Positions 20,375 to 47,712 of a stretch of DNA of 64,000 nucleotides are shown here, piece after piece. The notes under the pieces were generated by a model that was given only the letters and a program-made list of their open reading frames with translations, made no database searches and was not told the origin of the DNA. How positions within the stretch are numbered: position 1 is the first letter of the stretch; every line of letters starts with the position of its first letter. The DNA is from Candidatus Woesearchaeota archaeon (GTDB taxonomy: Archaea; Nanobdellota; Nanobdellia; UBA10117; ARS21): assembly GCA_038128845.1 (NCBI GenBank), contig JAYPKL010000001.1, positions 42,338 through 106,337 on the forward strand. The letters are read 5' to 3'. The translations under genes and the position numbers were made by a program.

Positions 20375-20385
20375 GCAAAATTAAT

Positions 20386-21575: not shown

Positions 21576-21608
21576 TAGCTTTTTTAAATTTAAGTTTCTC
21601 TTAATAAT

Positions 21609-24098: not shown

Positions 24099-24123
24099 TA
24101 AAATATATAAATAAAAATAAAAT

Positions 24124-25139: not shown

Positions 25140-25142
25140 TAA

Positions 25143-25805: not shown

Positions 25806-25886
25806 ATTATTAATTTAAATTTATTTTTATAAACTTATCATTATATAATAAAACAAAGCTTAAAAATAGAGAATATAGAGAAATCT

Positions 25887-26825: not shown

Positions 26826-27982
26826 AAATTGCAGTAATTGGCATGGGTTATGTGGGTATACCGCTGGCTTATAATTTATCTAAGAATTTTGAAACAATTG
26901 GATACGATATTGATAAGAATAAAATTAATGAATTAAAATCTGGAAATGATTGCATAGGAGAATATACAAAAAAGGAAATAAATGAATCGAGTATAAAATT
27001 TACTTATGACTCAGATGAGCTAAAAAACGCAGAAGTATTTATTGTATGTGTACCCACTCCAATCGATATAGATAAAAAACCCAATTTATCTCACCTCGAA
27101 TCTGCAACCAAATTAATTTCTAAAAAAATGAATAAAAATAGTTTAGTTATTTATGAAAGCACAGTATATCCAGGATTAACAGAAGATTTTTGCGGTAAGA
27201 TTATTGAAGAAGCAGGATTTAAATTAAATAAAGACTATTATTTAGGATACAGTCCGGAAAGAGTTAATCCGGGGGATAAAATAAATAAAATAGATAAAAT
27301 TGTAAAATTAATTTCATGTTCTGACTCAAATAAATTAGATTTAATGGAAAAAATATATGGTAGTTTCACTAAAACACATAGAGTTGAATCAATTAAAATT
27401 GCAGAAGCATCTAAGGCAATTGAAAATGCCCAAAGAGATATCAACATAGCATTTATGAATGAGTTAAAAAATTTATTTAAAAAAACGGATTTGGATTTTA
27501 ATAAAATTTTATCTGCTGCAAAAACAAAATGGAATTTCTTAAATTTTTATCCGGGTCTAGTTGGCGGTCATTGTATTCCGGTTGATCCGTATTATTTAGC
27601 AGAATATGCTAAATTGAATAATTTTAAAACAGATTTAATTCTTTCAGGAAGAAAAATAAATGATGAAATGTACTTGAATTATAAAAAATATATTAAAAAT
27701 AAAATAAAGGGGGAAAAATTAATATTGCTGGGTTTGACTTTTAAAGAAAATGTTAATGATTTTAGATCGAGTCAGGCAATTAAATTGGCAAAAACATTGA
27801 ATTCTGAATACGAAATAAAATGTTATGATCCTTACGCTTCCGAAGAATTTTATTTATCTAATGGTCTGTCTAAGGCTTCTGAATCTGAACTTTCTAATGA
27901 TGAAATACCTAAAATAATATTGGTAAATCATTCAATGCTATTAAATAAATTTAAAAATGCAATTTTATTGAATGAATTATGA
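26822..27982 (+). CDS. UDP-sugar/nucleotide-sugar 6-dehydrogenase (UDP-glucose/GDP-mannose dehydrogenase family)
   Basis: MKIAVIGMGYVGIPLA N-terminal NAD-binding motif, a catalytic Cys region (GGHCIP) and a C-terminal UDP-binding domain. 386 aa. Confidence 0.75.
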   Translation: MKIAVIGMGYVGIPLAYNLSKNFETIGYDIDKNKINELKSGNDCIGEYTKKEINESSIKFTYDSDELKNAEVFIVCVPTPIDIDKKPNLSHLESATKLISKKMNKNSLVIYESTVYPGLTEDFCGKIIEEAGFKLNKDYYLGYSPERVNPGDKINKIDKIVKLISCSDSNKLDLMEKIYGSFTKTHRVESIKIAEASKAIENAQRDINIAFMNELKNLFKKTDLDFNKILSAAKTKWNFLNFYPGLVGGHCIPVDPYYLAEYAKLNNFKTDLILSGRKINDEMYLNYKKYIKNKIKGEKLILLGLTFKENVNDFRSSQAIKLAKTLNSEYEIKCYDPYASEEFYLSNGLSKASESELSNDEIPKIILVNHSMLLNKFKNAILLNEL

Positions 27983-29040
27983 AAAAAGTATTAATTATAT
28001 CTCCGTACTATGATGATGTGAATCACTGGATGGTTTCTACAATAAAGTATGCTGAAAATCTTTCAAAAATTTCAAAAGTTATTGTTTTTGCAGGAGGAAA
28101 TAAAACGGCAGTTAGGAAAAAAAATAATCTTAAAATATATACTTTTAAGGATTTTTTTATAAGAGATCCTGCAAATTATGGAATAATACCTTTTCAATTT
28201 ATTAAATTAAGTAAAATATTAAAAAAAGAAAAACCAGACCACGTGTTAATAAATAAACATATGTTTCATACTGCTTTATGTTCCATTTATTTAAAATACA
28301 AAAAAATACCTTTTACAATTTCAACAGATACTTTTCCAGGTTATGTTTGGTGGAGTGAAAATAGATTTGTTAATCTAGTTATATATTTTTATTCAAGAAC
28401 AATAGGTAATCTTGCTTTGAAACTTTCAGATAAAGTAATTCTCTTTCACGAAGGTTTGATACCTACTGCAAAAAAATTAAAACTTAATTATAAAGTTATA
28501 CATAATGGAATAGATTTAACAAAAATTAAAAAATATAAAAAGAAAAAATCAAATAAAATCATTATTGGATATGTTGGACGTTTAGAATCTGTAAAAAGAT
28601 ATCAAGATATAATAGAAGTTTCAAAAAGATTTTCAGATGATGTTGAATTTCACTTTATTGGTGAAAATAAAAAATATATTTCTAATAAAAATTTAAAATT
28701 TTTGGGTCACAAAAAAAATGTTTATCCGTTTATTTCAAAGTTTGATATTTTTTTAATAACATCTAAATCAGAAGGTTTACCTAATGCTTTGATGGAAGCA
28801 ATGTCTTTAGGAGTTGCTCCAATAGTTACAGACGTAGGTGGAAATAAAATACTTGTAAAAAATATGAAAAACGGTATAAACTATCCTGTCGGGGATATCA
28901 ATAAATTAGAAAAAGCAATAAAATATTTAATTAAGAATGAAAGAAAAAGAGAAGAATTTGGTTCAAAAAGTAAAAAAATTATTGAAGATAAATTTAATTG
29001 GAAAATGATTTCAAAAAAAATTTTAAATTATTTAGCGTAA
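27979..29040 (+). CDS. GT4 (GT-B fold) glycosyltransferase
   Basis: C-terminal EGLPNALMEAMSLGVAPIVTDVGG (the E-x7-E region of retaining GT4 enzymes). Confidence 0.7.
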   Translation: MKKVLIISPYYDDVNHWMVSTIKYAENLSKISKVIVFAGGNKTAVRKKNNLKIYTFKDFFIRDPANYGIIPFQFIKLSKILKKEKPDHVLINKHMFHTALCSIYLKYKKIPFTISTDTFPGYVWWSENRFVNLVIYFYSRTIGNLALKLSDKVILFHEGLIPTAKKLKLNYKVIHNGIDLTKIKKYKKKKSNKIIIGYVGRLESVKRYQDIIEVSKRFSDDVEFHFIGENKKYISNKNLKFLGHKKNVYPFISKFDIFLITSKSEGLPNALMEAMSLGVAPIVTDVGGNKILVKNMKNGINYPVGDINKLEKAIKYLIKNERKREEFGSKSKKIIEDKFNWKMISKKILNYLA

Positions 29041-29088: not shown

Positions 29089-29343
29089 ATGTCTAAATCA
29101 AAATCAAGCGAATTGTTGGGTAAAACAGTAGTTTCTAAATCTGGAAAAAGATTCGGATCATTATCTGATCTAATTTTTGAATCTCGGACTGGTGAATTAA
29201 TTTATTTAGCAATAAAAAGTCCAACAGATTATTGTAGAAGTTTGGAACTTGAAAACGATAAATTATCAGGTCTTTTAATTCCTTTTTCTGCAGTTATATC
29301 TACTGGAGATTTTGTAATTGTTGCAGAAGAAGATATTGTTTAA
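29089..29343 (+). CDS. small PRC-barrel-like protein (hypothetical)
   Basis: 84 aa. Pattern LLGKTVVSKSGKRFGSLSDLIF...GELIYL. A paralog lies at 40707..40967. Confidence 0.35.
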   Translation: MSKSKSSELLGKTVVSKSGKRFGSLSDLIFESRTGELIYLAIKSPTDYCRSLELENDKLSGLLIPFSAVISTGDFVIVAEEDIV

Positions 29344-29780
29344 AAAACGTTTAATATATCTTTGGATTGTTTTAGTAAGTAATCCGATCCATAATCAGAT
29401 AAATAAAATAATTTTGGTCGTCCATCAATTGAAGATACGTGTCCAGTTGTTTCTAATTCATTTAACTTATTACGTATAGTTCTCTCCGATTTTTTCAAAT
29501 TAAATGCTGCCTTAATTTGAATAGAAGATACAGCATAATTTGCATTTATTGCTTGACCTTGCTTCAACATTAATAATAATTGATTTGAACTGATACTTAA
29601 ATTTCTTGCCGCAAGAGGAGTTTCTTTCTTTTGAGGTTTTGAATTTAATTCAAGAATTTTTTCTAATAAAAATTGATATTTTGATTTCATGGTTTCTAAT
29701 TCTGAATTGGTTTTATCGAGTTTAGATTTTAATTTTTCAATATCTGACTTATGGTTATTAAGTATCTCGTAAACATCCAT
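29340..29780 (-). CDS. coiled-coil protein with C-terminal winged-helix-like domain (putative DNA-binding)
   Basis: 146 aa. N-terminal heptad-rich region and a C-terminal segment (ERTIRNKLNELETTGHVSSIDGRPKLFYLSDYG) resembling a wHTH. Shares the MDVYE N-terminus with 61685..62128. Confidence 0.4.
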   Translation of the reverse strand: MDVYEILNNHKSDIEKLKSKLDKTNSELETMKSKYQFLLEKILELNSKPQKKETPLAARNLSISSNQLLLMLKQGQAINANYAVSSIQIKAAFNLKKSERTIRNKLNELETTGHVSSIDGRPKLFYLSDYGSDYLLKQSKDILNVF

Positions 29781-29830: not shown

Positions 29831-29853
29831 TACCCCTTTGTTTCCTATGGAAA
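29831..29853 (-). promoter_or_regulatory. origin-recognition-box (ORB)-like element, copy 1
   Basis: TACCCCTTTGTTTCCTATGGAAA. The minus strand reads TTTCCATAGGAAACAAAGGGGTA, which is a TCCA-N3-GGAAAC dyad followed by a G-string. Confidence 0.5.
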
Positions 29854-29893
29854 TACCTTTATTTCCTTTTTTGTGCCTAAAAATTTAATTAGT

Positions 29894-29907
29894 GGAAAAT
29901 TTTTTCC
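29894..29907. repeat. perfect 14-bp palindrome GGAAAATTTTTTCC between the two ORB copies
   Basis: Read directly from the sequence. Confidence 0.5.
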
Positions 29908-29913
29908 AATAAT

Positions 29914-29936
29914 TACCCCTTTGTTTCCTATGGAAA
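29914..29936 (-). promoter_or_regulatory. ORB-like element, copy 2 (identical 23-mer; 83-bp spacing; direct repeat)
   Basis: Identical to 29831..29853. Contains the TAG stop (minus strand) of the Cas4-like gene within its TCCTATGG core. Confidence 0.5.
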
Positions 29937-30620
29937 GTCTTTATCTCGATTGAAACATATGTCTTTAAATTCGCAGTAATTGCAAGCAAATGACTCTTGT
30001 CTTTCGGGAGGCGATTCAGTCTTTAGTGCATATGCCAAAGTGGTTCCTCTTGCTTCCAAATAATTTATCATATCTCTTTTTTCGATCTCATAAACTCTAA
30101 CTTCTTTAAGAGAAAAATAAACTATCTTTAATGCTTTAATTTGTGATTGTCTTAATGGATCAATCATACTGAAATAAGACTGAAGTTGTTTAACGTGTTC
30201 TTCTTTTGGTTCATTGGGAATTCTTTCAATAGTCTTAAATTCATACATAATATTGTCAGATAATACATCTACAAATCCTATTGCGGAAAAAAGTCCAAAA
30301 TCTTTCTTAAGAAAAACTTCGTTTTCATGTTCTTCCAAATGATCTTGAAAAAAATTATGAATTGCATGACCTCTCGAAAAAATCCATAATTTTTCCAAAG
30401 GAAGAGGTATTTCTTCAACTAAGTCGTAATAAGATCGCCTTATGCACGGTCCAGTTAATCGAGTAACTCCAAATCTAGGATTTCCTTCTCTTTTTTTCTT
30501 ACTTTTATTTCTTCCTGCAAGAAGCGCTTTTAATACAACAGGAGGGTAGTGTTCAAAATCTTGTGTTAAGACATCTTCAACGTCTCTTTCAACACCGTCA
30601 GGACACAATATTTTTGTCAT
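29928..30620 (-). CDS. Cas4/RecB-family PD-(D/E)xK nuclease with 4-Cys Fe-S cluster motif
   Basis: 230 aa. N-terminal Cys (ILCPDG), nuclease motifs IGFVDVL / EFK / QLQSY, and C-terminal C-x2-C-x5-C (CNYCEFKDIC). Overlaps the PolD DP2 stop by 4 bp. Confidence 0.6.
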   Translation of the reverse strand: MTKILCPDGVERDVEDVLTQDFEHYPPVVLKALLAGRNKSKKKREGNPRFGVTRLTGPCIRRSYYDLVEEIPLPLEKLWIFSRGHAIHNFFQDHLEEHENEVFLKKDFGLFSAIGFVDVLSDNIMYEFKTIERIPNEPKEEHVKQLQSYFSMIDPLRQSQIKALKIVYFSLKEVRVYEIEKRDMINYLEARGTTLAYALKTESPPERQESFACNYCEFKDICFNRDKDFP

Positions 30621-33600
30621 ATAAATTCACCGAGTCCTTTTTGTTTAGTTAATTCTTTTCCAAATACAGAATCTATTCTTTTTTGTAATAAAACTATGGT
30701 TTCTCTCAAATAAGGCGATACTCCTTCTATTTTCATTAATTCGTGTGTAGCTTCAATATATTTTTTTATTGATCCTTCGCTTATTGTGTAAATTAATTTT
30801 GGATTTTTACATGAATTACATATTCCTGATAAAGGCATTCTTCGATATTTTTCGTTGCATTTTGGACATCTAAATTGTTGCATAGTAAATTTACGTAAAT
30901 TTCCTTTTGTATCTCTTATGAAGTGTCCGTTTACTATTAATTCTGCTAATTTTGGTAAACTAACTGCTCGGATTAATTTGGCCAATTCCACTTGTCCAGC
31001 CATTTTTTCTGTCATAGTGGGCAATGTTTTATATGCAGAAACTAAGACTCCTTCATTCAGATTTGAAACCGGATGTGTGAATAGATGATTTTCGTATTGA
31101 TCAATTGTATCCAGTGTGTCTTTTATTGTTCTTATATTTATATCCCATGGTTCTTTCATTGCTCTAGCACATTCATAAAATTCTAAAGGATATGAATCAA
31201 CAATATTGAGATCGTAAACTTCATCATCAACTTCCTTTGAATTCAAGATTGTTGTAATAACTAAAGGTGCATCCATTGAACGCGAACCTCTTTGATCCGG
31301 TAAAAAATCTCTTGAAAAATTTAAGAATGCATCTAACATGAGCATAATCGAAGTTTCTTCTCCGTCTAAATCTCTTCTCTGTGCGGCATGCCAATATGGA
31401 TGTGCAAGTAAAGCAGAAATTTTAGAAAATCCAATGATCCTTCCGGCAATACCTGCAGAAGTATGTGGCGCGAGTCCGATAATCATTCTGCCAATTAAAT
31501 CTTCTTTTACGGCAATATTATAGTATGCTTTTTGATTATAGAGTCTTGTTAATTCTTCATCAACAAAGTTTGCAGTTCGTAATAAAACTTCAGATCCTGA
31601 TTCAGATCCTAGTTGATCTCCGTCCGGTATTATGACATCTTGCGGAAATATTTCAATTAACTGATTGGCGTCTGTTATTGGGTTTCCTAAATAATCTGAT
31701 TCATAACCTAATTTTTTTAATTTTTTTAGAGTTAATCCTATCTCTATTGGTTTAAAATGAGTAACGCCAAGTTCAGTTCCATCATATCTTATTGTTCCGT
31801 CTTTATTAACTCTTAAAGAAAATTTAGCTCTCAATATGCCTTTAAGAGGGTGTTCTGCATATCTGTGTTTATTTAACGTTCTCTCAACACCTTTTATTAG
31901 TTGAGGTATTTCGTCATCCCATTCGGATATTGTTTTTTTATATAATTCAGATATTTGATATTTGCGTTTTTCAAATGCCCGGACGCGAATGTCTTTCGGA
32001 GGTTGATCGTATTTTATTTTTGTTTTTGGATCAACATATTTTTGTGAAGTATTAAACGAGTCGCAATTTTCACATTTTTTATATAACGACTGTTTATTAC
32101 AATCCAAACAATATAGTAAAGGAAAATCCGAATAAACGTATCCCTTCTTGACTACATCTACAAAATTGTTCATTCTACCTCCTTCCTTCCCTACTGGAAA
32201 TAAAAAATTTGGCGATCCTTTAAGATCTCTCATTTTTGCTTTCTCCGGTCTGCCCATTCTTGCGCCTATTGCTGTACCCCATAAATCTTCGATAGTATAT
32301 TCTGAAAAATCATTAATTAAATTCAAAGAATTTGTATAATTTTCTACATTTGCATCAGTTAGATTTTCATTTAGATTTAATTTTAATGTTTTTAGAATTT
32401 TTTCATCAAATTCAATCTCCGAATTTATATTTCTATGTTCGGCGCCAATTAATTCAATTGATCTTTTTATTGAATCAGTTAACTCCTTTTTTTTGTATAA
32501 GTATTTTGTTAAATCGACCACTTCTTTTGGTGAAATTTCATTCCAGTAAAATATTAATTCTGGATGTAAAGGAATATTGTAGTTTTTTGAAATATTTAAT
32601 AATAATTCATATTCTATTTTTTGTGGTAAAAATGAATCAAAAAAATTTGAATTTAAATTATTTTTTTGTATAAACTCGCTTTTGTTGTCTATTTTTGATT
32701 TTAATATATTGAACCACCATTCCGGACAAAATCCCGGTGGAGCAAGGAAATGATTATTTTCTAAAAATTCTCCTTGGGAAATTAAAATATCTCCCAAAAA
32801 TAAAATCTCAGATATTTCTTTAGTAATTTCGTTTGCTTCCGAAACTGTTTTTGGTTTTACAACAGAACCGTCTTTAAGTTTCAATATTGGTCCTTCGATT
32901 GAATCGCATGCAGTTAAGGATGTTGATTTTCCGGGTCTTTCGACTCTTAATTGAGTTCCTATTGCTAAGTAATCTTTACAAACTGCCATAGTTATCGGAG
33001 ATATTGCCCAAGAACCATGTCCTGTCAATCTAGATCTACCATAACGTAATCTAAATCCTCCTTTTCGCAGAGGGTGAGTAAATATTGGACGTCCCGCAAC
33101 TATTTCAGAGATATAAGAATAGTTTGGTTTTAATTTTGACTCGTCTTTTTTTGAATCAGATCTTGAGTGTATTTTTTTCTTTAATTCCAAGAATTCTTCC
33201 AGCCAATTCCAATCCGATAAATTAAAATCGGAGCCCCATTCCTTTATTTTTTTAAGTACTTTTGCACCTTTTAGAGGAATACAATCCGTTAATAATAATG
33301 CCATTCCGCCTCTTATTCTATCTGTCTCTATACGATCTAAGTTCTTGAAATTTGAAACAGATAATTTTGATGTTGGATCTCCGTTTAGTTCGACAGATAA
33401 GTTTGAAATGATAAATTTCATTTCTTCTTCGGTAGGCTTGTATTGTTTTCGCTCAACTCGATCATAATAATCGGTAACTTCCGTATAAAATCTTCTTATT
33501 TCGTCTTCCGAAGGATCGTATTTATCGATGTTATGTATTTTTCTAACGTAATCAGTTATTACTACTGTTACTGCAGATGCAGTTGCACCTCCCCCTCGAA

Positions 33601-34060
33601 TTGGACCTGCAAAATACATTGCTAAGTATTTTTTTCCATCTCTTCTTTTTTTAAAACGAATATCGATTAAACCCTCTAAGGGTGCTGAAACTGTGCCTTG
33701 CGTTATGTATGCAAATCCTGTTCTTATTCCAATATTTATTGCAGTTATTTGATCATCAAATTTGCAAAATTGTTCCGTAGATATTTCTTCCGCTAATTTT
33801 AGTGCAACTCTCCAATCTCCAAAACCAAATTCGGTTTCTAATTCGTTAATTCTTTTTGGGATTCCTTTTCCGATGATATTGGGAGATATTGATCCCATAA
33901 TTGCTTCAACTCTTTCTGAAACAGATGCTGCTATAGGAATATCTGATTCAAGTTGTGGATCTATTCCTGTTTTTTTAGCTAAGTTTGCAAGACTGTTGAG
34001 TTCGTGTGTTTTTTCATTCATAAAATTAAAATATTTTTGAATAGGTTGTGATGCAATCAT
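30617..34060 (-). CDS. DNA polymerase II (PolD) large subunit DP2
   Basis: 1147 aa with no intein. Assigned by length and architecture, C-terminal Zn-finger cysteines (CPKCN...CNSCK), and position next to orc1/cdc6 and DP1. Confidence 0.85.
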   Translation of the reverse strand: MIASQPIQKYFNFMNEKTHELNSLANLAKKTGIDPQLESDIPIAASVSERVEAIMGSISPNIIGKGIPKRINELETEFGFGDWRVALKLAEEISTEQFCKFDDQITAINIGIRTGFAYITQGTVSAPLEGLIDIRFKKRRDGKKYLAMYFAGPIRGGGATASAVTVVITDYVRKIHNIDKYDPSEDEIRRFYTEVTDYYDRVERKQYKPTEEEMKFIISNLSVELNGDPTSKLSVSNFKNLDRIETDRIRGGMALLLTDCIPLKGAKVLKKIKEWGSDFNLSDWNWLEEFLELKKKIHSRSDSKKDESKLKPNYSYISEIVAGRPIFTHPLRKGGFRLRYGRSRLTGHGSWAISPITMAVCKDYLAIGTQLRVERPGKSTSLTACDSIEGPILKLKDGSVVKPKTVSEANEITKEISEILFLGDILISQGEFLENNHFLAPPGFCPEWWFNILKSKIDNKSEFIQKNNLNSNFFDSFLPQKIEYELLLNISKNYNIPLHPELIFYWNEISPKEVVDLTKYLYKKKELTDSIKRSIELIGAEHRNINSEIEFDEKILKTLKLNLNENLTDANVENYTNSLNLINDFSEYTIEDLWGTAIGARMGRPEKAKMRDLKGSPNFLFPVGKEGGRMNNFVDVVKKGYVYSDFPLLYCLDCNKQSLYKKCENCDSFNTSQKYVDPKTKIKYDQPPKDIRVRAFEKRKYQISELYKKTISEWDDEIPQLIKGVERTLNKHRYAEHPLKGILRAKFSLRVNKDGTIRYDGTELGVTHFKPIEIGLTLKKLKKLGYESDYLGNPITDANQLIEIFPQDVIIPDGDQLGSESGSEVLLRTANFVDEELTRLYNQKAYYNIAVKEDLIGRMIIGLAPHTSAGIAGRIIGFSKISALLAHPYWHAAQRRDLDGEETSIMLMLDAFLNFSRDFLPDQRGSRSMDAPLVITTILNSKEVDDEVYDLNIVDSYPLEFYECARAMKEPWDINIRTIKDTLDTIDQYENHLFTHPVSNLNEGVLVSAYKTLPTMTEKMAGQVELAKLIRAVSLPKLAELIVNGHFIRDTKGNLRKFTMQQFRCPKCNEKYRRMPLSGICNSCKNPKLIYTISEGSIKKYIEATHELMKIEGVSPYLRETIVLLQKRIDSVFGKELTKQKGLGEFI

Positions 34061-34098
34061 ATTGGTATTTTTTTATCAGTAGTTTTTAAAAATCATTA

Positions 34099-34428
34099 TT
34101 GAAAAATATACATATGAGAGGTAGACCTACGTTTAGTCCAATAAGAAATAATTTAGTTGAATTAATTTATTTTATGGGTAGTTCATATGGCTATGATATA
34201 TATAAAAAGTATATTGAAATTTTTCCAAAAACAACTATGCGTTCAATTTATTATCATTTAAATAAAGGATCCAAATTAGGTGTATTTGTAGTTTCTAAAG
34301 TCGAAGAAGTAAAGGGCGATTATTCTTGGGGCATTGGCGTAAGAAGAGTAAATTTCAAATTAGGTCCTAATGCTCAACCTAAAAAAGATTTGATGATTTT
34401 GAAAAAATTAAAATCAATTAAAAAATAA
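34099..34428 (+). CDS. small hypothetical protein, possible winged-helix DNA-binding protein, abutting oriC
   Basis: 109 aa. Basic, with an HTH-like segment (GYDIYKKYIEIFPKTTMRSIYYHLNKG). The stop is 2 nt before the left ORB. Confidence 0.35.
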   Translation: MKNIHMRGRPTFSPIRNNLVELIYFMGSSYGYDIYKKYIEIFPKTTMRSIYYHLNKGSKLGVFVVSKVEEVKGDYSWGIGVRRVNFKLGPNAQPKKDLMILKKLKSIKK

Positions 34429-34430: not shown

Positions 34431-34456
34431 CTCACCCTTGCGTTTCTTGTGGAAAA
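34431..34456 (-). promoter_or_regulatory. ORB (origin recognition box), left, inverted orientation
   Basis: The minus strand reads TTTTCCACAAGAAACGCAAGGGTGAG. Confidence 0.5.
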
Positions 34457-34558
34457 TTATTTTATTTATTATAATTTTATAATAAAATATATTAATTAAT
34501 TACTATATTGAAAATAAATAAAATAAAAAATTTTTTTGATATATTATATACAATATAA

Positions 34559-34585
34559 TTCCATAAGAAACAAAAGGGTAGGGGG
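34559..34585 (+). promoter_or_regulatory. ORB, right, forward orientation
   Basis: TTCCATAAGAAACAAAAGGGTAGGGGG. Confidence 0.55.
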
Positions 34586-34645
34586 TTAAAAATTAAAAAA
34601 TTAAGTTTAATATCAAATTAATCAACTAAAATTTTATAAGGTACA

Positions 34646-34658
34646 TTTCCTATGGAAA
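34646..34658. promoter_or_regulatory. mini-ORB dyad TTTCC-TAT-GGAAA overlapping the orc1/cdc6 start codon
   Basis: Same 13-mer core as the ORB copies at 29.8 kb. The ATG at 34652 lies inside it. Confidence 0.45.
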
Positions 34659-35863
34659 TTATGGATTCAGATTTAGACAATTTATTTGATGAATATATTT
34701 CAAAAAAATCTATCTTTTCAAATAAAGAAGCATTGCTTTTACGTTATTTTCCAGAAAATATACCTCATCGATCCGAACAAATAAAAAAACTAGGTATGAT
34801 TTTAGCACCAGCATTAAAAAATAACAAACCATCAAATTTATTTATATATGGAAAAACTGGAACAGGTAAAACTCTGTGTACACAATTCACTATACAAAAA
34901 TTGTTAGAAAAAAGTAAATTAACTGGAGCCAAAATAAAGTATGCTTACTTAAATTGTAAATTAAAAAAAATTGCAGATACCGAATACAGAGTAATCGCCA
35001 GCTTAGCAAAAGAATTGGGCGAAGACGTTCCAGTTACGGGATTACCTACTGACGAAGTTTACAACATATTTATTAATAAAATAGATTCAGAAGATCAAAT
35101 TATTTTTCTTGTGTTGGATGAAATTGACAGATTAGTTAAAAAAAGCGGCGACGAAATACTTTACTCTTTGACTCGAATTAATTCGGAATTAAAAAAGTCA
35201 AAAATATGTTTAATTGGAATATCAAACGATGTTCGTTTTATTGAAGATGTTGATCCGCGGGTAAAAAGCTCTCTTGGTGAAGAAGAATTAATTTTTCCGC
35301 CTTATAATGCGCTGGAATTAAAAGACATCTTAAAAGAAAGAAGCGAAATTGCATTTTCAGAAGATTCTTTGGACTCAGCAGTTTTAGCAAAATGTGCCGC
35401 ATATGCTGCAAAAGAACACGGAGATGCAAGACGTGCACTAGATTTACTCAGAGTTGCAGGTGAAGTTGCAGAAAGAAGTAATGAAGAAATTGTAAAAATG
35501 GAACATATCAAAAAAGCAGAAGAAAAAATAGAAATTAATCGTATTTTTGAATTAGTTAAAACATTACCATCACAATCAAAATTAATTTTATATTCCATAT
35601 TTAATTTATCTGAAACAATAACAAAACTTGAAACGGGCGAAATTTATGAAGAATATAAGAACTTATGCAATATAAACAATAGTGCAATATTAACTCAACG
35701 AAGAATATCTGATTTAATCTCCGAGTTAGATATGCTCGGCCTAATAAATGCAAGATTAATCAGCAAAGGCAGACACGGAAGAACCAGAGAAATTTATTCA
35801 ACAATACCTTCAGATCTAAAAGAAATTTTAATGAAAGATTTAAAATCCGAACTAATGTTATGA
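34652..35863 (+). CDS. orc1/cdc6: Orc1/Cdc6 replication initiator (AAA+ plus winged helix)
   Basis: Walker A IYGKTGTGKT, Walker B LVLDEIDRL, sensor residues, and a C-terminal wH (LGLINARLISKGRHGRTREI). Confidence 0.9.
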   Translation: MEIMDSDLDNLFDEYISKKSIFSNKEALLLRYFPENIPHRSEQIKKLGMILAPALKNNKPSNLFIYGKTGTGKTLCTQFTIQKLLEKSKLTGAKIKYAYLNCKLKKIADTEYRVIASLAKELGEDVPVTGLPTDEVYNIFINKIDSEDQIIFLVLDEIDRLVKKSGDEILYSLTRINSELKKSKICLIGISNDVRFIEDVDPRVKSSLGEEELIFPPYNALELKDILKERSEIAFSEDSLDSAVLAKCAAYAAKEHGDARRALDLLRVAGEVAERSNEEIVKMEHIKKAEEKIEINRIFELVKTLPSQSKLILYSIFNLSETITKLETGEIYEEYKNLCNINNSAILTQRRISDLISELDMLGLINARLISKGRHGRTREIYSTIPSDLKEILMKDLKSELML

Positions 35864-37194
35864 ATTACAAAGATTTAATTAAAACTGCTCAAGAAAACAC
35901 AAAAAAAGAAGTTGTTATTGTAAAAAATAATATCGACGATTTAAAATCAAATCTAAAAGTAGTTAAAGAGTTTGACTATAAACCCAAAAAAGTAGAACCG
36001 TCCGATTTCACACAACACTTCAGAGAAAGATTTAAATTTTTAAGAAACACATTATTCAATCGACCGGAAGCTGCTTCAACAATTTCAATAAATCAAGCAA
36101 AAAAATCTTTTGAAAAAAACATTACAGTAATTGCAATGGTAAATGATGTAACGAGGCTTCCAACTGGAACAATGCTCGTATCTGTAGAAGATCTAACTGA
36201 TCAACTCGAAATAATTATTTCATCAAAAAACAAAGAACTAATAGAAAAATTACAATTTCTTACATTGGATGAAGTACTAATTTTCAAAGGCAACATAGTA
36301 AACGAAAAAATGTTTTTATCAGATATAATTTGGCCAGACGTTCCTGCCAAAAATCCAGAATATGCACCTGATGACGTTTATGCAGTTTTCTCAGGAGACA
36401 TTCATATAGGAAGTAAACAATTTTTACCAAAACAATTCGACACATTTATCGATTGGCTATCTGGAAAAATTGGAAACGAAAGACAAAAAGAAATTGCAAA
36501 AAAAACCAAATATTTCTATATTCCAGGAGATTTAGTTGACGGAATAGGTATATATCCAAATCAAGAAAAAGAGTTAGATATAAAAGATTTGAGAGGACAA
36601 TATGACGCTCTTGCAAGATATCTCGAAAAAGTTCCAGATGACAAACATATAATTATTTGTCCAGGTAATCATGATACTGCGGTCCGTTTAGAAGAACCAC
36701 AACCAAAAATGTACGAATACGCAGAAAAAATTTCAGAATTACCAAATGTAACTATGGTAACAAACCCGTCTTATACAAATATTCATTCATTTGATAATTA
36801 TTCGGGGCAAGATGTTCTAATGTATCACGGATATTCCTTTGATAATTTAATCGATCAAGTTGAAGGATTAAGATTATCCGGCGGTTATGAGTCTGCAGAT
36901 GAAATACATAAATTTTTACTTAAGCGGCGACATTTATCTCCTACTCACAATTTAAACTTAACTTTACCAATAAAAAAAGATCCAATGGTTATAGACAAAA
37001 TTCCCGATATAATGGTGACGGGACATATACACAAAGCAAAAATCGGATCATATAAATCAACCATATCTATTTCAGGAAGTTGTTGGCAATCTATTACGTC
37101 ATTCCAAGAAAAATTGGGACATAAACCGGATCCAGGGATGATACCAATTACCAATCTTAAAACAAGACAAAGCAAGATGTTATCTTTCAAATAA
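35860..37194 (+). CDS. DNA polymerase II (PolD) small subunit DP1 (Mre11-like phosphoesterase)
   Basis: Calcineurin-like motifs FSGDIHIGS, PGDLVD, CPGNHD and GHIH. N-terminal OB-like region. Overlaps orc1/cdc6 by 4 bp. Confidence 0.85.
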   Translation: MNYKDLIKTAQENTKKEVVIVKNNIDDLKSNLKVVKEFDYKPKKVEPSDFTQHFRERFKFLRNTLFNRPEAASTISINQAKKSFEKNITVIAMVNDVTRLPTGTMLVSVEDLTDQLEIIISSKNKELIEKLQFLTLDEVLIFKGNIVNEKMFLSDIIWPDVPAKNPEYAPDDVYAVFSGDIHIGSKQFLPKQFDTFIDWLSGKIGNERQKEIAKKTKYFYIPGDLVDGIGIYPNQEKELDIKDLRGQYDALARYLEKVPDDKHIIICPGNHDTAVRLEEPQPKMYEYAEKISELPNVTMVTNPSYTNIHSFDNYSGQDVLMYHGYSFDNLIDQVEGLRLSGGYESADEIHKFLLKRRHLSPTHNLNLTLPIKKDPMVIDKIPDIMVTGHIHKAKIGSYKSTISISGSCWQSITSFQEKLGHKPDPGMIPITNLKTRQSKMLSFK

Positions 37195-37223
37195 TTTTTT
37201 ATTTAATCAATAACTCCTTTAAA

Positions 37224-37976
37224 ATGATATTATTATTTTATTTAATTTTTTCAGTATTCATCCTACAATTTCTTGCAAAAATAATATCTTCAAATTATGA
37301 TTTAATTTCTTTATTTAACATATTGACTCAAAAAGAATTTTTTCTAATCTCAATATTATTAATTTATTTGCTTTATAGTACATTAACTAAAAAAAATATT
37401 TTTTCAAATTTATTTAAAATAACCATACTTTATGCTATTTTCATATTATTCTCAATTTTTTTCGACGAATTAATTTCAATAATTTTTTCGATTATTCTTA
37501 TTCGTCTGTATTACTTAAAGAAAAATTTAGTTTTACATAATTTTGTTATATTAATGGCATCATTAGGTGTCAGTCTTTTTTTCGGATCTACAATAAAACC
37601 AATGAATGCTTTGATTCTTGCCGGAATTTTTGCAATTTATGATTTTTATGCAGTATATAGATCAAAATTAATGGTAGATATGTTCAATAAATTTTCAAAA
37701 AACAATGCAATTTTTGCAATTATTTTAAGAAGTAAATTAAGACCAAATAATCAATTCATTATGGGTTCAGGAGATTTAATATTTCCAACATTAATTACAG
37801 TATCTTTCAATACATATTTACCGCATCTAACTAATGCGTCCATCTTAGGATCAATCCTGGGATATAGTTTTGTTTTTTATTTAATAAAAAATCAGAAATC
37901 TCATAATCCGGTTCCAGCACTACCACCAATATTATTTTGTATATTTACTTCATTGATTTTCAGACTCTTGTTCTAG
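37224..37976 (+). CDS. presenilin/signal-peptide-peptidase homolog (GxGD intramembrane aspartyl protease, A22 family)
   Basis: Polytopic 250-aa protein with the ordered triad of family motifs: YD (AIYDFYAV), GxGD (MGSGDLIFP) and PAL (PALPPILF). Confidence 0.65.
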   Translation: MILLFYLIFSVFILQFLAKIISSNYDLISLFNILTQKEFFLISILLIYLLYSTLTKKNIFSNLFKITILYAIFILFSIFFDELISIIFSIILIRLYYLKKNLVLHNFVILMASLGVSLFFGSTIKPMNALILAGIFAIYDFYAVYRSKLMVDMFNKFSKNNAIFAIILRSKLRPNNQFIMGSGDLIFPTLITVSFNTYLPHLTNASILGSILGYSFVFYLIKNQKSHNPVPALPPILFCIFTSLIFRLLF

Positions 37977-38597
37977 AACAGATTTTATTTTTTCGGCCTT
38001 CTTTTTACCAATTTTTTCAACATTCTGTAAATCCTTTTCTGAGGCATTAAATATATTTTTTGGAGTTTTAAATTCATCGAGTAAAGCATTTGCCAATTTT
38101 GGACCTACACCAGGCAGACCTTCGATCAAATATTTCTGTTCTTCTTCAAGCGTCCAGAATCTTTTACCAACTCTAAAAGACAAAATATCATTTTTTTCGC
38201 GATATTCTCTCCGCAATAAATTTTTCAATATAATCGAAGTAAATTCTATATCTTCGGAATATATGACAGATATTCCATAATCTAATTTGAGAGAAAGTAA
38301 TGCAGAAATTATTGCATTTTCAGAAATATCTCTAGACCAATATAACTCTGACGAATCACCTTCAACAATAATTAATACTTTATCAAAATTATCTTTCAAA
38401 TTTTTTGCCTGATTAAACAATCTACCGTCAATAAGAGAAGCCAGAAAATCTGAAATTGTTTTTCTTTCAACTATACATTTTTCGGATAACAGATAATCAC
38501 CTATATCTAATTTACAAAACTCATAATCTATTTTTAATTTATTTAAATCAAAACCTATTCCTGATTTTTTTTCACGATTATCTATAAATATTTTCAT
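37950..38597 (-). CDS. hef: Hef/XPF-type ERCC4 nuclease domain plus HhH2, encoded as a separate ORF
   Basis: ERK nuclease motif (VERKTISD), GDYLL, and a C-terminal (HhH)2 motif GLPGVGPKLANALL. The start overlaps the stop of the upstream helicase ORF by 4 bp. Confidence 0.7.
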   Translation of the reverse strand: MKIFIDNREKKSGIGFDLNKLKIDYEFCKLDIGDYLLSEKCIVERKTISDFLASLIDGRLFNQAKNLKDNFDKVLIIVEGDSSELYWSRDISENAIISALLSLKLDYGISVIYSEDIEFTSIILKNLLRREYREKNDILSFRVGKRFWTLEEEQKYLIEGLPGVGPKLANALLDEFKTPKNIFNASEKDLQNVEKIGKKKAEKIKSVLEQESENQ

Positions 38598-40015
38598 TTT
38601 TTCAACAAGTTATACATATTTTCTTCTTTCTTCTTTGAAACCCAATAGTATTTTTCATCAATTGAATCTTTTGTCATAAGCATATATACTTTACCGACGT
38701 TTACTCTTCCTATACGACCTCTTCTCTGTATACTACGCAAAGCAGAAGGAACACATTCAAAAAATATTCCTATGTCTGCATCATCTACATGAATTCCTTC
38801 TTCTGAAACACTGGTGGCAACTAAAATATCAAATTTACCTTCTTTAAATTCTTCTAAAATTTTTTTTTGATTTTTCTGAGTAAATCCTTTTCTCTGACCA
38901 GTGAATTTGGAAGCAGAATAATCTCCAGATTGATTTATCCGTGTCACCAATTCATCAACAGATTGAACATACTGACAAAAAATTATAATTTTTTTATTTT
39001 TTTCAATCAAATCAAAAACTTTGTTAATCTTAAAATTATCAGAAAGATTTGTAATTAGTTTTTTTATTCTAATCATTCGAAAATCCTCTAAAATACTTTT
39101 TGAAGATTTTGCACTTTCTTTTTCCAATTTATCTAATGCTTTGATAAACGAAGAATTGGTTTGAGTTTCCAACATTTCAAGCAAGTGTAGCAATTTTATT
39201 ACTTTTGTATTTGTCATAATAAATCGATAATATGAAGAGTCTTCTTTAACTTTACCAAAAAGAATTTTATTTAGTTTAATTAATTCTCCTTTGCTCAAGT
39301 ATTCAAATTTACGATAAACCAATCTATTTTTATGTAAAATATTATAACTTTCTCTCAACATATCGACAATCATTTTCTTAATCTCCAGATGAATTTTTGA
39401 AAGATTTAAAGATATAACTTCAATATCTCTTTTTGGTAAATATTCTAACATTTCTTCTTTATTTACTATATGAAAAATATCCAACTTCAGTAGATCTTTC
39501 AACTCATCCAATCTTTCTTTCTCTGTTGCAGGACTAGCACTCATTGCCAAAATTTGAGAATTGTTTATTTTGTTTGCAATTTTTGTATATGCATATTCGC
39601 CACTTGTTCGATGAGCTTCATCAAATATAACTAAAGAAAAATCATCAAAACTAAAAAAACCTCGTTCATAATCTGAAATTATTGTTTGAGGAGTACCAAT
39701 TATTATATCTGATTCAAACCAAATATTTTTCCTTATTTCGGGATTAATAGTACCATCAACAATATTAATCAATTCGGGATCATTAAAGAAAACGTCATAA
39801 CTTTTTTTATGTTGTTGAACTAACGGTTTGGTTGGAGCCATTAATAAAATTTTACCAGAATTTAATTTTATTCCGGAAAGCGCAATGGCAATAATTGTTT
39901 TACCTGCACCCGTTGGTAAAACTATAAATGAATTTTTTTCTATTATTTTTCCCAAAGTTTTTTCCTGATATGGACGTAATTTAATTTTATCTTTATTTAA
40001 TTTCAACATTTTCAA
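38594..40015 (-). CDS. hef: Hef-type SF2 helicase domain protein (XPF/FANCM-like helicase), separate ORF
   Basis: Motif I VLPTGAGKT, motif II FDEAHR, and a C-terminal helicase domain (QRRGRIGR). 473 aa. Confidence 0.75.
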   Translation of the reverse strand: MKMLKLNKDKIKLRPYQEKTLGKIIEKNSFIVLPTGAGKTIIAIALSGIKLNSGKILLMAPTKPLVQQHKKSYDVFFNDPELINIVDGTINPEIRKNIWFESDIIIGTPQTIISDYERGFFSFDDFSLVIFDEAHRTSGEYAYTKIANKINNSQILAMSASPATEKERLDELKDLLKLDIFHIVNKEEMLEYLPKRDIEVISLNLSKIHLEIKKMIVDMLRESYNILHKNRLVYRKFEYLSKGELIKLNKILFGKVKEDSSYYRFIMTNTKVIKLLHLLEMLETQTNSSFIKALDKLEKESAKSSKSILEDFRMIRIKKLITNLSDNFKINKVFDLIEKNKKIIIFCQYVQSVDELVTRINQSGDYSASKFTGQRKGFTQKNQKKILEEFKEGKFDILVATSVSEEGIHVDDADIGIFFECVPSALRSIQRRGRIGRVNVGKVYMLMTKDSIDEKYYWVSKKKEENMYNLLKK

Positions 40016-40658
40016 TAAATTTTTCTACCTTCTCTTTATGACCTGCACCAATTACAACAAGTATTTTTGAATCAGGAAATTTATTTTTTAATAACTTTAT
40101 TTGATTTTTCATATAATTGTCCCTATCTTTAACCAAACAAGAATAAATATTTGGAAAATCCGATTTAAATTCACTAATTAATTCTTTTATTTTCTTTTGA
40201 CTTGGAACTTTTTTAACATCAAATTGAGCTTTACTTGAATTTTTCTTAAAAGCAAAAGTAAATAATTTTAATTTCTCTTTTAATGGAACTTCTTTTGACA
40301 ATTTTCTTAATGTAATTCTTATATCTTGATCAATTAATGCAATTTTTGCACCAGATTTTTTACCAAAAATTATTGCAGATTTCATATCATTTCCTGCAGA
40401 AGATCCGGTTTTTTTACCAATTATTTTTTGACTTATTGAACCGAATAATAGAAACAGGAATCCAAAAAATCCAATCTCGTAAATTAATTTTAAATTTATT
40501 TTTCTCTTACGATTTTTATTAAATAAATTCTTGTATCTATTTATATCTAATTCTACTGCGACTATATCTGGTTTAAATTCAATTATTGCAGATTTAATTT
40601 CTTTTACGCTGTTTTTTGAAACATGACTTGTTCCAATTACTAAAAACTGATTATCCAT
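39993..40658 (-). CDS. TraB/PrgY/GumN-family protein
   Basis: N-terminal LVIGTSHVS and VAVELD motifs, a central hydrophobic segment, and C-terminal GAGH. Confidence 0.5.
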   Translation of the reverse strand: MDNQFLVIGTSHVSKNSVKEIKSAIIEFKPDIVAVELDINRYKNLFNKNRKRKINLKLIYEIGFFGFLFLLFGSISQKIIGKKTGSSAGNDMKSAIIFGKKSGAKIALIDQDIRITLRKLSKEVPLKEKLKLFTFAFKKNSSKAQFDVKKVPSQKKIKELISEFKSDFPNIYSCLVKDRDNYMKNQIKLLKNKFPDSKILVVIGAGHKEKVEKFIENVEIK

Positions 40659-40706
40659 ATAGTATTTTGTAGAAATGTTTATATTTAAAAAAACTATTTC
40701 ATTTGT

Positions 40707-40967
40707 ATGTTAATTACAAAAAATCTTAACAGCGTACACGGTATAGATGTTTATACAGATTCTGGCGAATATTTTGGTAAAATTGAAGAAGCAATTTTAC
40801 TTCACAATAAAATCGATTCATGGAAAGTAAGAGCAACCCCGAGATCATACTTATCAAAAGCAATGCCAACTGCAAAAGGAGTAATTTTACCACACCACCA
40901 TGTTAAGGCCATCGGTGATGTAATGCTTGTATCAAGATCCGCAGCACCAGCATTCATTGAAGATTAA
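40707..40967 (+). CDS. small PRC-barrel-like protein (paralog of 29089..29343)
   Basis: 86 aa, GIDVYTDSGEYFGKIEEAIL pattern. Confidence 0.35.
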   Translation: MLITKNLNSVHGIDVYTDSGEYFGKIEEAILLHNKIDSWKVRATPRSYLSKAMPTAKGVILPHHHVKAIGDVMLVSRSAAPAFIED

Positions 40968-41009
40968 GTCATTACGATTTATTTATAAAATTTTATTATA
41001 GTATTTTTT

Positions 41010-42818
41010 ATGAATTTTAAAGATACATCCGAAATAAATGTTCCTAAAAAAGTCATTGATAAAATAATAGGACAAGCTCATGCAGTTAAAATCATTAAAA
41101 AAGCTGCAAACCAAAGACGTCATGTTCTATTGATTGGATCTCCTGGAACCGGAAAATCCATGCTGGGTAAAGCGCTATCCCAATTATTACCAAAATCTGA
41201 ACTTGAAGACGTCATGGTATTAAATAACCATAAAGACGAGAATAATCCTATTGTTAAAACTTTGACCTCAGGAAGAGGTTCGGAGATATTACAAATTGCA
41301 AGACAAAATTCAATTAAAAATTTAAAAAAACAATCAATATTTTTCTTAATTTTTTCAATATTGGTTTTACTTTTTCCTTGGTGGATTAGATCAATTTACG
41401 GCGATGTAATGGCTGCAGCATCAATGGTGTCAGGAGTAATGTTTCTTGTTTTATACGGGGTTGCAATAAATATGTCATCAAGAAAAAAACAAAGTAATGA
41501 ACCAAAATTATTAATTGATACAAATTTAAAAAATTCTTCACCATATATTGATGCAACTGGATCTCATGCAGGATCTCTTTTAGGAGATGTTAGACATGAT
41601 CCTTTCCAATCGGGAGGTCTTGGAACTCCCGCTCATTTAAGAGTCGAACCAGGTATGATTCATCGAGCAAATAAAGGTGTTTTATTTATCGATGAAATTG
41701 CAACAATCGACATTCCAACTCAACAAGAACTTTTAACCGCAATGCAAGAAAAGAAATCTTCCATAACAGGAAAATCTGATAAATCTGCTGGCGCCATGGT
41801 AAGAACTCAACCAGTGCCTTGCGATTTTATATTGGTGGCGGCAGGAAATATGGATACAATCGAAAAAATGCACCCTGCTCTTCGATCAAGAATAAGAGGG
41901 TACGGTTATGAAGTATTTATGGATAAAGACATAGATGAAACAAAAGAAAATTTGGAACTATTTTATCAATTCATTGCACAGGAAATAAGAAAAGACGGAA
42001 AAATTCCACATATGACAAAAAAAGCATGTGACGAAGTTTTAAGAATTGCAAAAAAAATGTCTGGCAAAAAGAAGAAATTAACCCTTAGATTGAGAGAACT
42101 CGGCGGATTAATTCGGGCAGCAGGAGATTTGGCAATAGAAGAAAAATCAAAACTAATCGAGTTAAAACATGTAATTTCTGCAGAAAAAGATCCACGTACC
42201 CTTGAAAATCAAATTGCAAAAAAACATATCAAGAATGTAACAGACTATCAAATAATTAGAAATAACGGTTATGAAGTTGGAAGAGTAAATGGTCTTGCAG
42301 TTATCGGAGATTCCGGAATAGTTTTACCAATTGAAAGTGAACTTGCCCCGGGCGGAAAAAGAAAACAAATTATTGCAACAGGTAAACTTGGAACAATTGC
42401 AAAAGAAGCAATACACAATGTGTCTGCAATTATCTTGAAAAATTTTGGAAAAGACATTAACGAAAAATATGACGTTTTCGTGCAATTTATTCAAACTTAT
42501 GAAGGAGTAGAAGGAGATTCTGCATCTGTTTCAGTTGCAACTGCGATAATATCTGCTCTAACTAACAATCCTATTAATCAAAGTTTTGCAATGACTGGTA
42601 GTTTATCTGTCAGAGGAGAGGTACTTCCTGTGGGAGGAGTAACTAACAAGATTGAAGCTGCAATTTCAGCAGGAATATCGGATGTAATAGTTCCTTTTTC
42701 AAATAAAGACGATATCGTTTTAGATAAATCTCAAATTAAAAAAATAAATATTCACTATGCAAAAAATATAGAAGACGTATTAAACCTTGCACTAAAGAAA
42801 AAAATAAAATGGAAATAA
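41010..42818 (+). CDS. lonB: archaeal membrane-bound Lon protease (LonB)
   Basis: AAA+ Walker A GSPGTGKS, two TM helices inserted within the ATPase domain, and a C-terminal Ser-Lys protease domain ([11 protein letters not shown]...PVGGV). Confidence 0.85.
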
Positions 42819-42970
42819 ATATTGAAAATTCAAAGCTCGAAAGAATAAAATCTGTATTGAAAAATTCAGAATTTAACACAGTTGATGATTTTATAAATCA
42901 TTCAATTGAATTATTACTTTTTGCTGAAGAAAATAAAGATAAGTTTAAAGACTTAGTTAGCAACTCTTAA
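42809..42970 (+). CDS. small ORF (53 aa), possible ribbon-helix-helix/CopG-like protein, overlapping lonB 3' end
   Basis: Below the ORF-track size cutoff; translated by hand as [54 protein letters not shown] beta-strand-helix-helix pattern is plausible. Confidence 0.25.
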
Positions 42971-42993
42971 AAATTTAGGATAATTAATTCACT

Positions 42994-46882: not shown

Positions 46883-46939
46883 GACTGTTGAAGAAGATTT
46901 AGAAAATATATCTGAACAAGAATTATCAATAAAAAAAGA

Positions 46940-46972
46940 GCGAAAATGGCTCAGGTTTTTCGCGTATTTTAT
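46940..46972. terminator. weak inverted repeat (GCGAAAA...TTTTCGC, 10-nt loop) between convergent topA and radB
   Basis: Read directly from the sequence. A loosely structured candidate only. Confidence 0.2.
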
Positions 46973-47002
46973 GATAACTATTGTAATAATCTATTACGTT
47001 TT

Positions 47003-47695: not shown

Positions 47696-47712
47696 TTCAA
47701 AATATTTTTATA

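Follow-up and report, generated by a model that had tools for sequence, protein, structure and literature searches.

The 64-kb window analysed here (64,000 nucleotides, positions 42,338 to 106,337 of contig JAYPKL010000001.1 from a Candidatus Woesearchaeota archaeon) very probably carries, at 34431..34585, the chromosomal origin of replication (oriC) of this uncultured member of the Woesearchaeota (DPANN), which its sequence features assign to the Orc1-1/oriC1 type. We base this reading on a pair of inverted origin recognition boxes (ORBs), the AT-rich spacer between them, the adjacent gene for the initiator protein Orc1, the conservation of the layout in relatives, and a switch in strand composition at the locus. 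A first-pass annotation of this DNA had proposed inverted ORBs flanking an AT-rich stretch upstream of orc1/cdc6, together with a third, smaller box at the gene start, and all three boxes were indeed found in the sequence. Skew analyses and ORB scans of the source replicon covered the window, which has 29% G+C (genome mean A+T 71%) and represents chromosomal DNA, with SerRS, CysRS, topoisomerase IA, LonB, CDC48, PolB, RadA and tRNAs all present. The encoded Orc1 has thousands of relatives, of which the closest named ones stem from Candidatus Woesearchaeota, Nanoarchaeota and Nanobdellota metagenome-assembled genomes, and the locus itself is contained in the Logan runs SRR26337526, SRR26337528, SRR26337537 and DRR729384.

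The left box, ORB-L (34431..34454, minus strand, TTCCACAAGAAACGCAAGGGTGAG), and the right box with its extended G-string, ORB-R (34559..34585, plus strand, TTCCATAAGAAACAAAAGGGTAGGGGG), scored 24.8 and 24.6 bits, respectively, with a position weight matrix (PWM) trained on regular-expression matches in relatives, from which the near-identical closest relative (L001) had been left out and in which the positions fixed by the expression were softened. ORB-R agrees with the first-pass annotation in coordinates, strand and sequence, whereas ORB-L, although present, ends 2 nt earlier than the annotated position 34456. Its dyad end is directed toward the spacer and its G-rich end outward. Between the boxes lies an AT-rich duplex unwinding element (DUE, 34455..34558) with only 4 G/C in 104 nt; the almost pure A+T composition ascribed to the spacer was thus borne out (96%), but not its extent of ~102 bp (34457..34558). 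The most AT-rich 100-bp segment of the entire 64 kb is 34461..34560, with 96% A+T compared to 89% for the runner-up. A degenerate 21-mer built from both boxes (TTCCAYAAGAAACRMAAGGGT, up to three mismatches allowed) yielded four matches in the window as opposed to 0.02 expected from shuffled sequences, and the PWM at a threshold of at least 10 bits likewise returned four ORBs only, with scores of 24.6–32.6 bits. All five copies of the 12-nt core TTCCAYARGAAA are located inside two ORB clusters, the fifth one being a mini-ORB at 34646..34657.

Comparison of these boxes with the published archaeal ORB consensus CTTCCAGTGGAAACGAAAGGGGT (PMC4153887) revealed a common TTCCA-N3-GAAA dyad, 4-nt spacer and GGGGT run, with a second G-run on ORB-R; the ORB of the Methanomassiliicoccales has been given as GTTCCAGTGGAAATGG-AGGGGTA, sometimes extended by GGGGGT (PMC4153887). 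The dyad of an ORB is read by the winged helix of Orc1 and the G-rich part by the AAA+ initiator-specific motif. The minimal functional pattern of such origins has been described as ORB(-)/DUE/ORB(+) (Ori-Finder-Arch preprint; Sulfolobus genetics, PMC12141716), and the window matches this pattern, with ORB-L on the minus strand, ORB-R on the plus strand and the AT-rich spacer between them.

The layout is widely shared among relatives. The comparison set comprised 80 orc1 loci (numbered from L001 onward, ~1 Mb) from Woesearchaeota/Nanoarchaeota groups, one genome per species, in which the PWM detected 212 matches of at least 14 bits, of which 150 (84 plus-strand, 66 minus-strand) fall into the last 500 bp before orc1. 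In 53 of the about 60 loci for which at least 500 bp upstream of orc1 were available, the gene is preceded by an ORB on the minus strand and then one on the plus strand, and a minus-strand ORB at the position equivalent to that of ORB-L also occurs in relatives. The median length of the 53 inter-ORB spacers is 212 nt and their mean A+T content 82%, compared to 64% for the loci, and most of them include a 60-nt stretch with at least 90% A+T. In the clade of the window (L001–L005, Orc1 75–96% identical), the spacer measures 95–107 nt, and ORB-L, a central motif, ORB-R with its extension GGGTAGGGGG, a TATA-like box, the mini-ORB and the start codon are kept one by one, while the remaining AT-rich spacer sequence drifts. 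A more general rule, by which ORBs point away from the origin even at kilobase distances, was rejected because most upstream distal matches belong to one syntenic family or to the window clade and are therefore non-independent.

The central motif (TTACTATATTGAAAATAAATAA, 34500..34521, plus strand; core CTATATTGAAAA at 34503..34514) occurs once, exactly midway along the spacer, and a scan of the window returned one exact match. It is present in the window and in L001–L005 and, overall, in 34 of the 53 spacers, always as a single copy and always in one orientation, with almost no occurrences outside origins across 84 loci. Its consensus in relatives is TT(T/A)CTATAT(A/T)GAAAATAA, often forming the palindrome TTTCTATATAGAAA. 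In position, the motif resembles the Sulfolobus ucm (ATTATACAAACT, Table S1 of PMC12141716), a short conserved motif midway between ORB2 and ORB3 that is essential for origin firing and binds the protein UBP; in both cases, a single short motif lies midway between inverted ORBs. In sequence, however, CTATAT(A/T)GAAAA differs from ATTATACAAACT; a TATA(C/G)AAA-like stretch is common to both (7/8 positions in relatives, 6/8 in the window) and could be due to chance in such AT-rich DNA. UBP is a 111-aa protein with a beta-hairpin DNA-binding fold that is, according to the authors, restricted to Desulfurococcales and Sulfolobales (PMC12141716), and Dhanaraju et al. 2025 raised the question whether analogous origin-bound accessory proteins exist in archaea beyond the Sulfolobales. 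It is a rather improbable idea that woesearchaeotal origins carry a ucm equivalent of their own, an origin-exclusive and orientation-fixed TTTCTATAT(A/T)GAAAATAA, and that a factor peculiar to the lineage recognises it and is required for the activation or exit of MCM.

Strand composition was examined as well. Raw cumulative G-C climbs from 2 kb onward, peaks at 29762 and drops thereafter, and the M-K disparity reaches its minimum at 34340. Regression at fourfold degenerate sites revealed a negligible gene-strand effect (0.007±0.04) and a strong side-of-locus effect (-0.25±0.04, t=-6.4), and because the asymmetry follows the side of the locus and not the gene strand, it is of the replication type and not a transcription artefact. 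The neutral-site asymmetry at fourfold sites amounts to about +/-0.25 and was observed over 2000..29000 and 37000..62000. The only strong strand-composition switch in the window falls at about 30–34.5 kb, and the pooled fourfold-site change point (31997, support interval 30285..32996) is located between the two ORB clusters; per-gene fourfold skew could not assign the switch to either oriC or the distal ORBs owing to too few G/C sites per gene. In L002–L005, the skew has the same sign and size (-0.21, t=-5.4), while GC skew at third codon positions pooled over all 80 loci gave a weak and mixed signal. The skew switch, which had been suggested as a check on the origin, hence maps to the locus within the 64 kb, with a polarity opposite to the bacterial rule.

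Downstream of ORB-R follows the initiator gene orc1/cdc6 (34661..35863, plus strand; Pfam AAA, Cdc6_lid and Cdc6_C). Among proteins of solved structure, its product is most similar to S. solfataricus Cdc6-1 (2QBY_A, E 8e-109) and A. pernix ORC1 (2V1U, E 8e-102), the structures of which were determined with bound ORB DNA, and by sequence the encoded protein is of the initiator (Orc1-1) type. The open reading frame opens at 34652; homologues at 80% identity start with MSDELDNLF, aligned to Met4 of the window frame, and in L002–L005 the mini-ORB ATG opens a different frame that ends in a stop codon. These two observations led us to the conclusion that the true start is probably the ATG at 34661 and that the ATG at 34652 is merely part of the mini-ORB dyad. 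A TATA-like box (TTTATAAG, 34632..34639, plus strand) has its centre some 25 nt before ATG 34661, and a TTATAAGG/TTTTAAGG box occurs at the same spacing in L001–L005. As about 25 nt is the usual distance between TATA box and start in archaea, we infer that the orc1 mRNA is leaderless.

Between the TATA-like box and the start codon lies the promoter-proximal mini-ORB (34646..34658, minus strand; TTTCCTATGGAAA, reading TTTCCATAGGAAA on the minus strand), which consists of the dyad only, without a G-string, and is kept in L001–L005. The first-pass annotation had placed this box across the orc1 ATG; the box itself was recovered, but with the start at 34661 it lies just upstream of the start codon and does not overlap it. 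On the minus strand (TTCCATAGGAAA), it has the same polarity as ORB-L, and the TATA box occupies the place where the G-string would be. In 30 of 79 loci, the interval -70..+25 around the orc1 start contains a TTCCA-N3-GAA core on the minus strand, and this promoter core typically follows 6–8 nt after TTATA(A/T)ACC, also in distant relatives. An ORB placed over the TATA box would fit auto-repression of orc1 by Orc1, an idea that is strengthened by the conservation of the overlap.

The second ORB cluster is situated 4.6 kb from oriC and consists of two minus-strand boxes with the same sequence (TTCCATAGGAAACAAAGGGGTA), d1 (29831..29852) and d2 (29914..29935), whose 21-mer TTCCATAGGAAACAAAGGGGT is identical at 29832..29852 and 29915..29935. 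They form direct repeats 83 bp apart without an inverted partner, and each is followed by TGGAAA half-site repeats. At 32.6 bits, d2 scores above the oriC ORBs; it overlaps the stop codon of a Cas4-like gene, while d1 lies about 50 nt upstream of the start of p146 (29340..29780, minus strand). The product of this gene, a coiled-coil protein with a C-terminal winged helix, has no Pfam match, and the distal ORBs are located in the promoter region of the gene. The 147-bp intergenic region that contains them has 76% A+T compared to the genome mean of 71%, and the window scan revealed no central motif in their vicinity. Within the clade, L002 and L003 share the tandem pair, and L004 and L005 have a single copy; p146 is conserved in L002–L005. 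Tandem plus-strand ORB pairs beyond DP2, the gene for the large subunit of DNA polymerase D (PolD), were also detected in other relatives, 84–87 bp apart in four loci and 58 bp apart in L075, and these have no DUE. Judged from these sequence features, the distal pair is most likely an accessory Orc1 site, involved in titration, looping and/or regulation of p146, and not a second origin.

The surroundings of the distal cluster gave further observations. In the window clade, the gene for p84, a PRC-barrel protein (29089..29343, plus strand), lies beside p146 and the distal ORBs, and in many relatives with the majority-type gene order it stands directly beside oriC, divergent from orc1. As p84 adjoins oriC in these relatives, its location hints that the distal cluster may stem from what was ancestrally the left border of the origin region. 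In three related loci (L037:7840-7927, L061:7821-7929 and L068:7640-7724, plus strand), tandem ORB pairs were located just upstream of the TBP gene, and from their sequence Orc1 may bind the TBP promoter as well.

In the mechanism that we propose, the steps of which are modelled on work in Sulfolobus, Aeropyrum and Pyrococcus, one Orc1 monomer would occupy each ORB, with its winged helix on the TTCCA-N3-GAAA dyad and its AAA+ initiator-specific motif on the G-rich end. With the ORBs inverted, two Orc1 would face each other across the 104-bp spacer and load two MCM hexamers head-to-head, and melting of the spacer would then give rise to bidirectional replication. The central motif of 12–20 nt would be the probable site of a further factor, as ucm is in Sulfolobus. 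Orc1 bound to the promoter mini-ORB, with its G-string side over the TATA box, would exclude TBP/TFB or RNA polymerase and thereby repress orc1-DP1, and the distal ORBs would most likely provide auxiliary binding sites for Orc1 that serve to titrate the initiator or to form a loop and/or to control p146.

Several points weigh against this interpretation or against parts of it. Architecture by itself does not prove use, if one considers T. kodakarensis, in which oriC and cdc6 are intact and yet reportedly dispensable. The strand that runs 5'->3' toward the locus is G-/keto-rich on both sides, a skew sign that corresponds to that of a bacterial or Pyrococcus terminus, and 38 of the 50 flanking genes (about 76%; 21/26 on the left and 17/24 on the right) face the locus and would thus be head-on to forks leaving an origin. 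The distant loci show a weak switch (-0.025, t=-1.8), negative in 23 and positive in 10 cases. Inverted skew with a C-rich leading strand has been documented at experimentally mapped origins of four haloarchaeal species (PMC1868953), which makes the skew sign compatible with an origin; this precedent concerns the skew sign alone, as gene orientation was not compared. For the Woesearchaeota, nothing relevant on skew was found in the literature searched. In our view, the sign does not refute an origin, even though, within the 64 kb available, it is the chief departure from the textbook picture. The strength of the proposed auto-repression is uncertain as well, given that a lone mini-ORB binds Cdc6 weakly in Pyrococcus (PMC1904270).

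Among the alternative explanations, we first considered that the locus could be an Orc1-binding regulatory region only, acting on the transcription of orc1-DP1, DP2 and p146, a role that proteins of the Orc1 type play elsewhere, with initiation taking place elsewhere or without a fixed origin. This explanation, which appears improbable to us, would readily account for the ORB that overlaps the orc1 promoter, for the distal ORBs in the promoter region of p146 and for the ORB pairs just upstream of the TBP gene in related loci, and it could draw on the dispensable oriC of T. kodakarensis and on Sulfolobus Orc1-2, which is said to be a pure regulator. However, it leaves the inverted pair, the extremely AT-rich spacer of conserved length and the central motif unexplained, and it is at odds with the composition switch, which is independent of gene orientation and found at the locus both in the window and in L002–L005, as well as with the initiator (Orc1-1) type of the encoded protein.

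The polarity of the skew and the orientation of the genes, if read as in bacteria, would instead mark the locus as a replication terminus or fork-convergence zone. Cumulative G-C indeed has a maximum, not a minimum, at the locus, the keto-rich strand runs toward it from both sides, and about three quarters of the flanking genes face it. Nevertheless, we regard a terminus as very unlikely: we know of no case of orc1 with inverted ORBs and a DUE at a terminus, and the same architecture precedes orc1 in about 50 genomes whose flanking regions differ. Of the three tRNA genes that ARAGORN detected on the right flank, two are directed away from the locus, and a fourth, detected by Rfam, is also on the plus strand. 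The documented haloarchaeal origins, moreover, show that inverted skew can accompany a mapped origin. It is equally hard to sustain that the distal pair (29831..29935) represents a second origin, dormant or ancestral, for although it comprises the best ORB matches of the window (32.6 bits), lies close to the raw cumulative G-C maximum at 29762 and could, with p84 located beside oriC in most relatives, be a remnant of an ancestral left half, both of its ORBs lie on one strand without an inverted partner in an intergenic region of only 76% A+T, a mid-DUE motif and an adjacent initiator gene are missing, and similar tandem pairs (58–87 bp) beyond DP2 in relatives, three of them upstream of TBP, occur without a DUE.

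Replication genes lie on either side of the locus. The gene for the PolD small subunit DP1 (35860..37194, plus strand; Pfam Metallophos and DNA_pol_E_B) overlaps orc1 by 4 nt, for which reason the two genes are an operon, and the synteny of orc1 and DP1 extends to all relatives. On the other side, DP2 (30617..34060, minus strand; Pfam PolC_DP2 N-terminal, central and catalytic domains) is transcribed away from the origin, and its end is overlapped by 4 nt by the gene for the Cas4-like PD-(D/E)XK nuclease (29928..30620, minus strand; Pfam Cas_Cas4 and PDDEXK_1), so that the two genes are apparently co-transcribed and translationally coupled. The Cas4-like gene stays with DP2 in L002–L005, L008 and L013, and no CRISPR context was seen around it. 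The annotated arrangement, with a PolD large-subunit operon on one side and an orc1-DP1 operon on the other, was confirmed for both operons; DP2 does not, however, directly border the origin, as a small gene (small104) lies in between. The broader statement of the annotation, by which the entire PolD replicase is arranged around the origin, is correct for the window clade. Most relatives show the Pyrococcus-like order oriC>orc1>DP1>DP2. Only in the window, L001–L005, L007, L008 and L013 is DP2, together with the Cas4-like gene where the contig covers it, inverted on the other side of the origin, and this divergent placement of DP2 is a derived rearrangement.

The gene small104 (34114..34428, plus strand) encodes a small basic PadR-like winged-helix protein of 104 aa, ends 3 nt before ORB-L and is transcribed divergently from DP2, the start codons being separated by 53 nt (34061..34113). 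No match was obtained in Pfam and no sequence match in the PDB. The AlphaFold model (pLDDT 91) shows a winged-helix fold in which the wing is a long beta-hairpin and to which a C-terminal helix is added, and Foldseek ranked PadR-family regulators best, with Orc1 winged-helix domains and B. subtilis RTP further down. The family comprises 67 clusters, all from Woesearchaeota/Nanoarchaeota, and the gene accompanies the divergent DP2 in 8 of 11 loci. On account of this narrow family and co-occurrence, we favour for small104 a role in the local regulation of DP2-cas4 and of its own gene over one in binding the central motif. It is one candidate for such binding in the window clade, rated less likely because of the contrast between a family of 67 clusters and a motif in 34 of 53 loci, and because the gene goes together with the divergent DP2. 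As a homologue of UBP, small104 was rejected on account of the missing PDB sequence match and its predicted PadR-like winged-helix fold; no UBP entry appeared among the matches listed for small104, and other proteins of the window were not screened.

Among the characterized systems that resemble the locus most is oriC1 of Sulfolobus/Saccharolobus, which shares the inverted ORBs flanking an AT-rich DUE beside orc1-1, the same layout of dyad and G-rich end within the ORB and, in Cdc6-1/Orc1-1, the closest sequence relative of the window Orc1. In Sulfolobus, both the inverted ORBs and the mid-DUE ucm are essential (PMC12141716). The Sulfolobus origin differs in having a third ORB (ORB1) near the origin, whereas the additional ORBs of the window are found at the promoter and 4.6 kb away. 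The oriC of Pyrococcus and other Thermococcales likewise lies upstream of orc1/cdc6 followed by the PolD genes (oriC-cdc6-dp1-dp2), and Pyrococcus, like the window, has ORBs and mini-ORBs built on TTCC...GAA as well as a separate second cluster of ORBs at a distance of a few kb, which in Pyrococcus is bound by Cdc6 in vivo (PMC1904270). There, however, the ORBs measure 34 bp with a longer spacer between dyad and G-string, and the second cluster, at a distance of 1.5 kb, is part of dp1. The second cluster of the window is instead located beyond DP2-cas4 at 4.6 kb, DP2 lies on the other side of the origin, and the skew has the opposite polarity.

The haloarchaea offer two further parallels. In Haloarcula hispanica, the ORB-rich region oriC2D, a 722-bp segment that adjoins cdc6E on its downstream side and contains 11 ORBs, restrains initiation, probably by titration of the initiator in a datA-like manner (PMC3936714). 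Like the distal pair, it is an ORB cluster without a DUE or inverted pair a few kb from the true origin, but the cluster of the window comprises merely two ORBs and a few TGGAAA half-sites and is positioned beyond DP2-cas4 at the promoter of another gene. Haloarchaeal oriC1 shares the extended second G-run (GGGTAGGGGG) of its ORBs and, if the locus is the origin, the C-rich leading strand, while the window belongs to a genome of 29% G+C from a DPANN lineage.

Additional ORB-like sequences were encountered within coding regions. In eight loci (L023, L033, L034, L035, L045, L049, L057 and L076), plus-strand matches of 14–19 bits lie inside DP1, +2.4..+2.5 kb from the orc1 start; these matches in distant relatives recall the Cdc6-bound cluster inside Pyrococcus dp1 and may reflect a conserved coding segment. 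The DP1 gene of the window itself contains no ORB at a PWM threshold of at least 10 bits. Ten related loci carry, 3–7 kb upstream of orc1, a gene for a coiled-coil protein of ~200 aa with a C-terminal winged helix (including L012:2689-3300(-), L017:1245-1889(-), L043:1550-2131(-), L062:1698-2315(-) and L063:4618-5313(-)), the coding linker of which contains a full ORB-like 22-mer. The embedded ORB TCC-ACA-GGA-AAT-GAA-GGG-GTC codes for S-T-G-N-E-G-V and reads SIGNRGVPTDRQTNQQTDRQT in L063. The ORB-like nucleotides are kept in 10 of 10 homologues while the peptide is variable, which suggests that the embedded ORBs are under constraint at the DNA level. The p146 protein has a similar architecture without the embedded motif, but with two ORBs just upstream of its start. 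Homology to the ORB-containing proteins was not established, as BLASTP gave an E-value of 0.013 once and no match in the other comparison.

Further away from the locus, the right flank (37950..62128) forms a replication and repair island with an XPF-type ERCC4 nuclease, a separate Hef-like helicase, a Mre11-like phosphoesterase, topoisomerase IA, a RadB-like ATPase, a family-B DNA polymerase (51144..53393), RadA (57833..58837), an OB-fold RPA-like protein and HerA. An Rfam scan of the window returned tRNAs only, among them a 104-nt tRNA at 62296..62399 (plus strand) that is absent from the ARAGORN output and is probably an intron-containing archaeal tRNA.

In kind, the locus is a standard archaeal origin design that was already known. 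Members of the DPANN archaea either lack cultures or are difficult to grow, and to our knowledge no DPANN origin has been mapped experimentally; automated tools already annotate such origins in thousands of assemblies, including those of Nanobdellota. We consider as modestly novel the central motif, the ORB over the TATA box, the association of ORBs with a coiled-coil/winged-helix gene family, and the inverted skew. If small104 were to bind the central motif, this would answer the question of Dhanaraju et al. 2025 on accessory proteins outside the Sulfolobales. The strong inverted G/C skew together with the origin-facing genes of the window clade constitutes, besides the central motif, a second feature that calls for explanation. 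Overall, the locus provides a precise and comparatively validated woesearchaeotal oriC with coordinates for each of its elements, which can be used for the anchoring of genome maps, for coverage-based growth-rate estimates from metagenomes, and for Orc1/MCM biochemistry.

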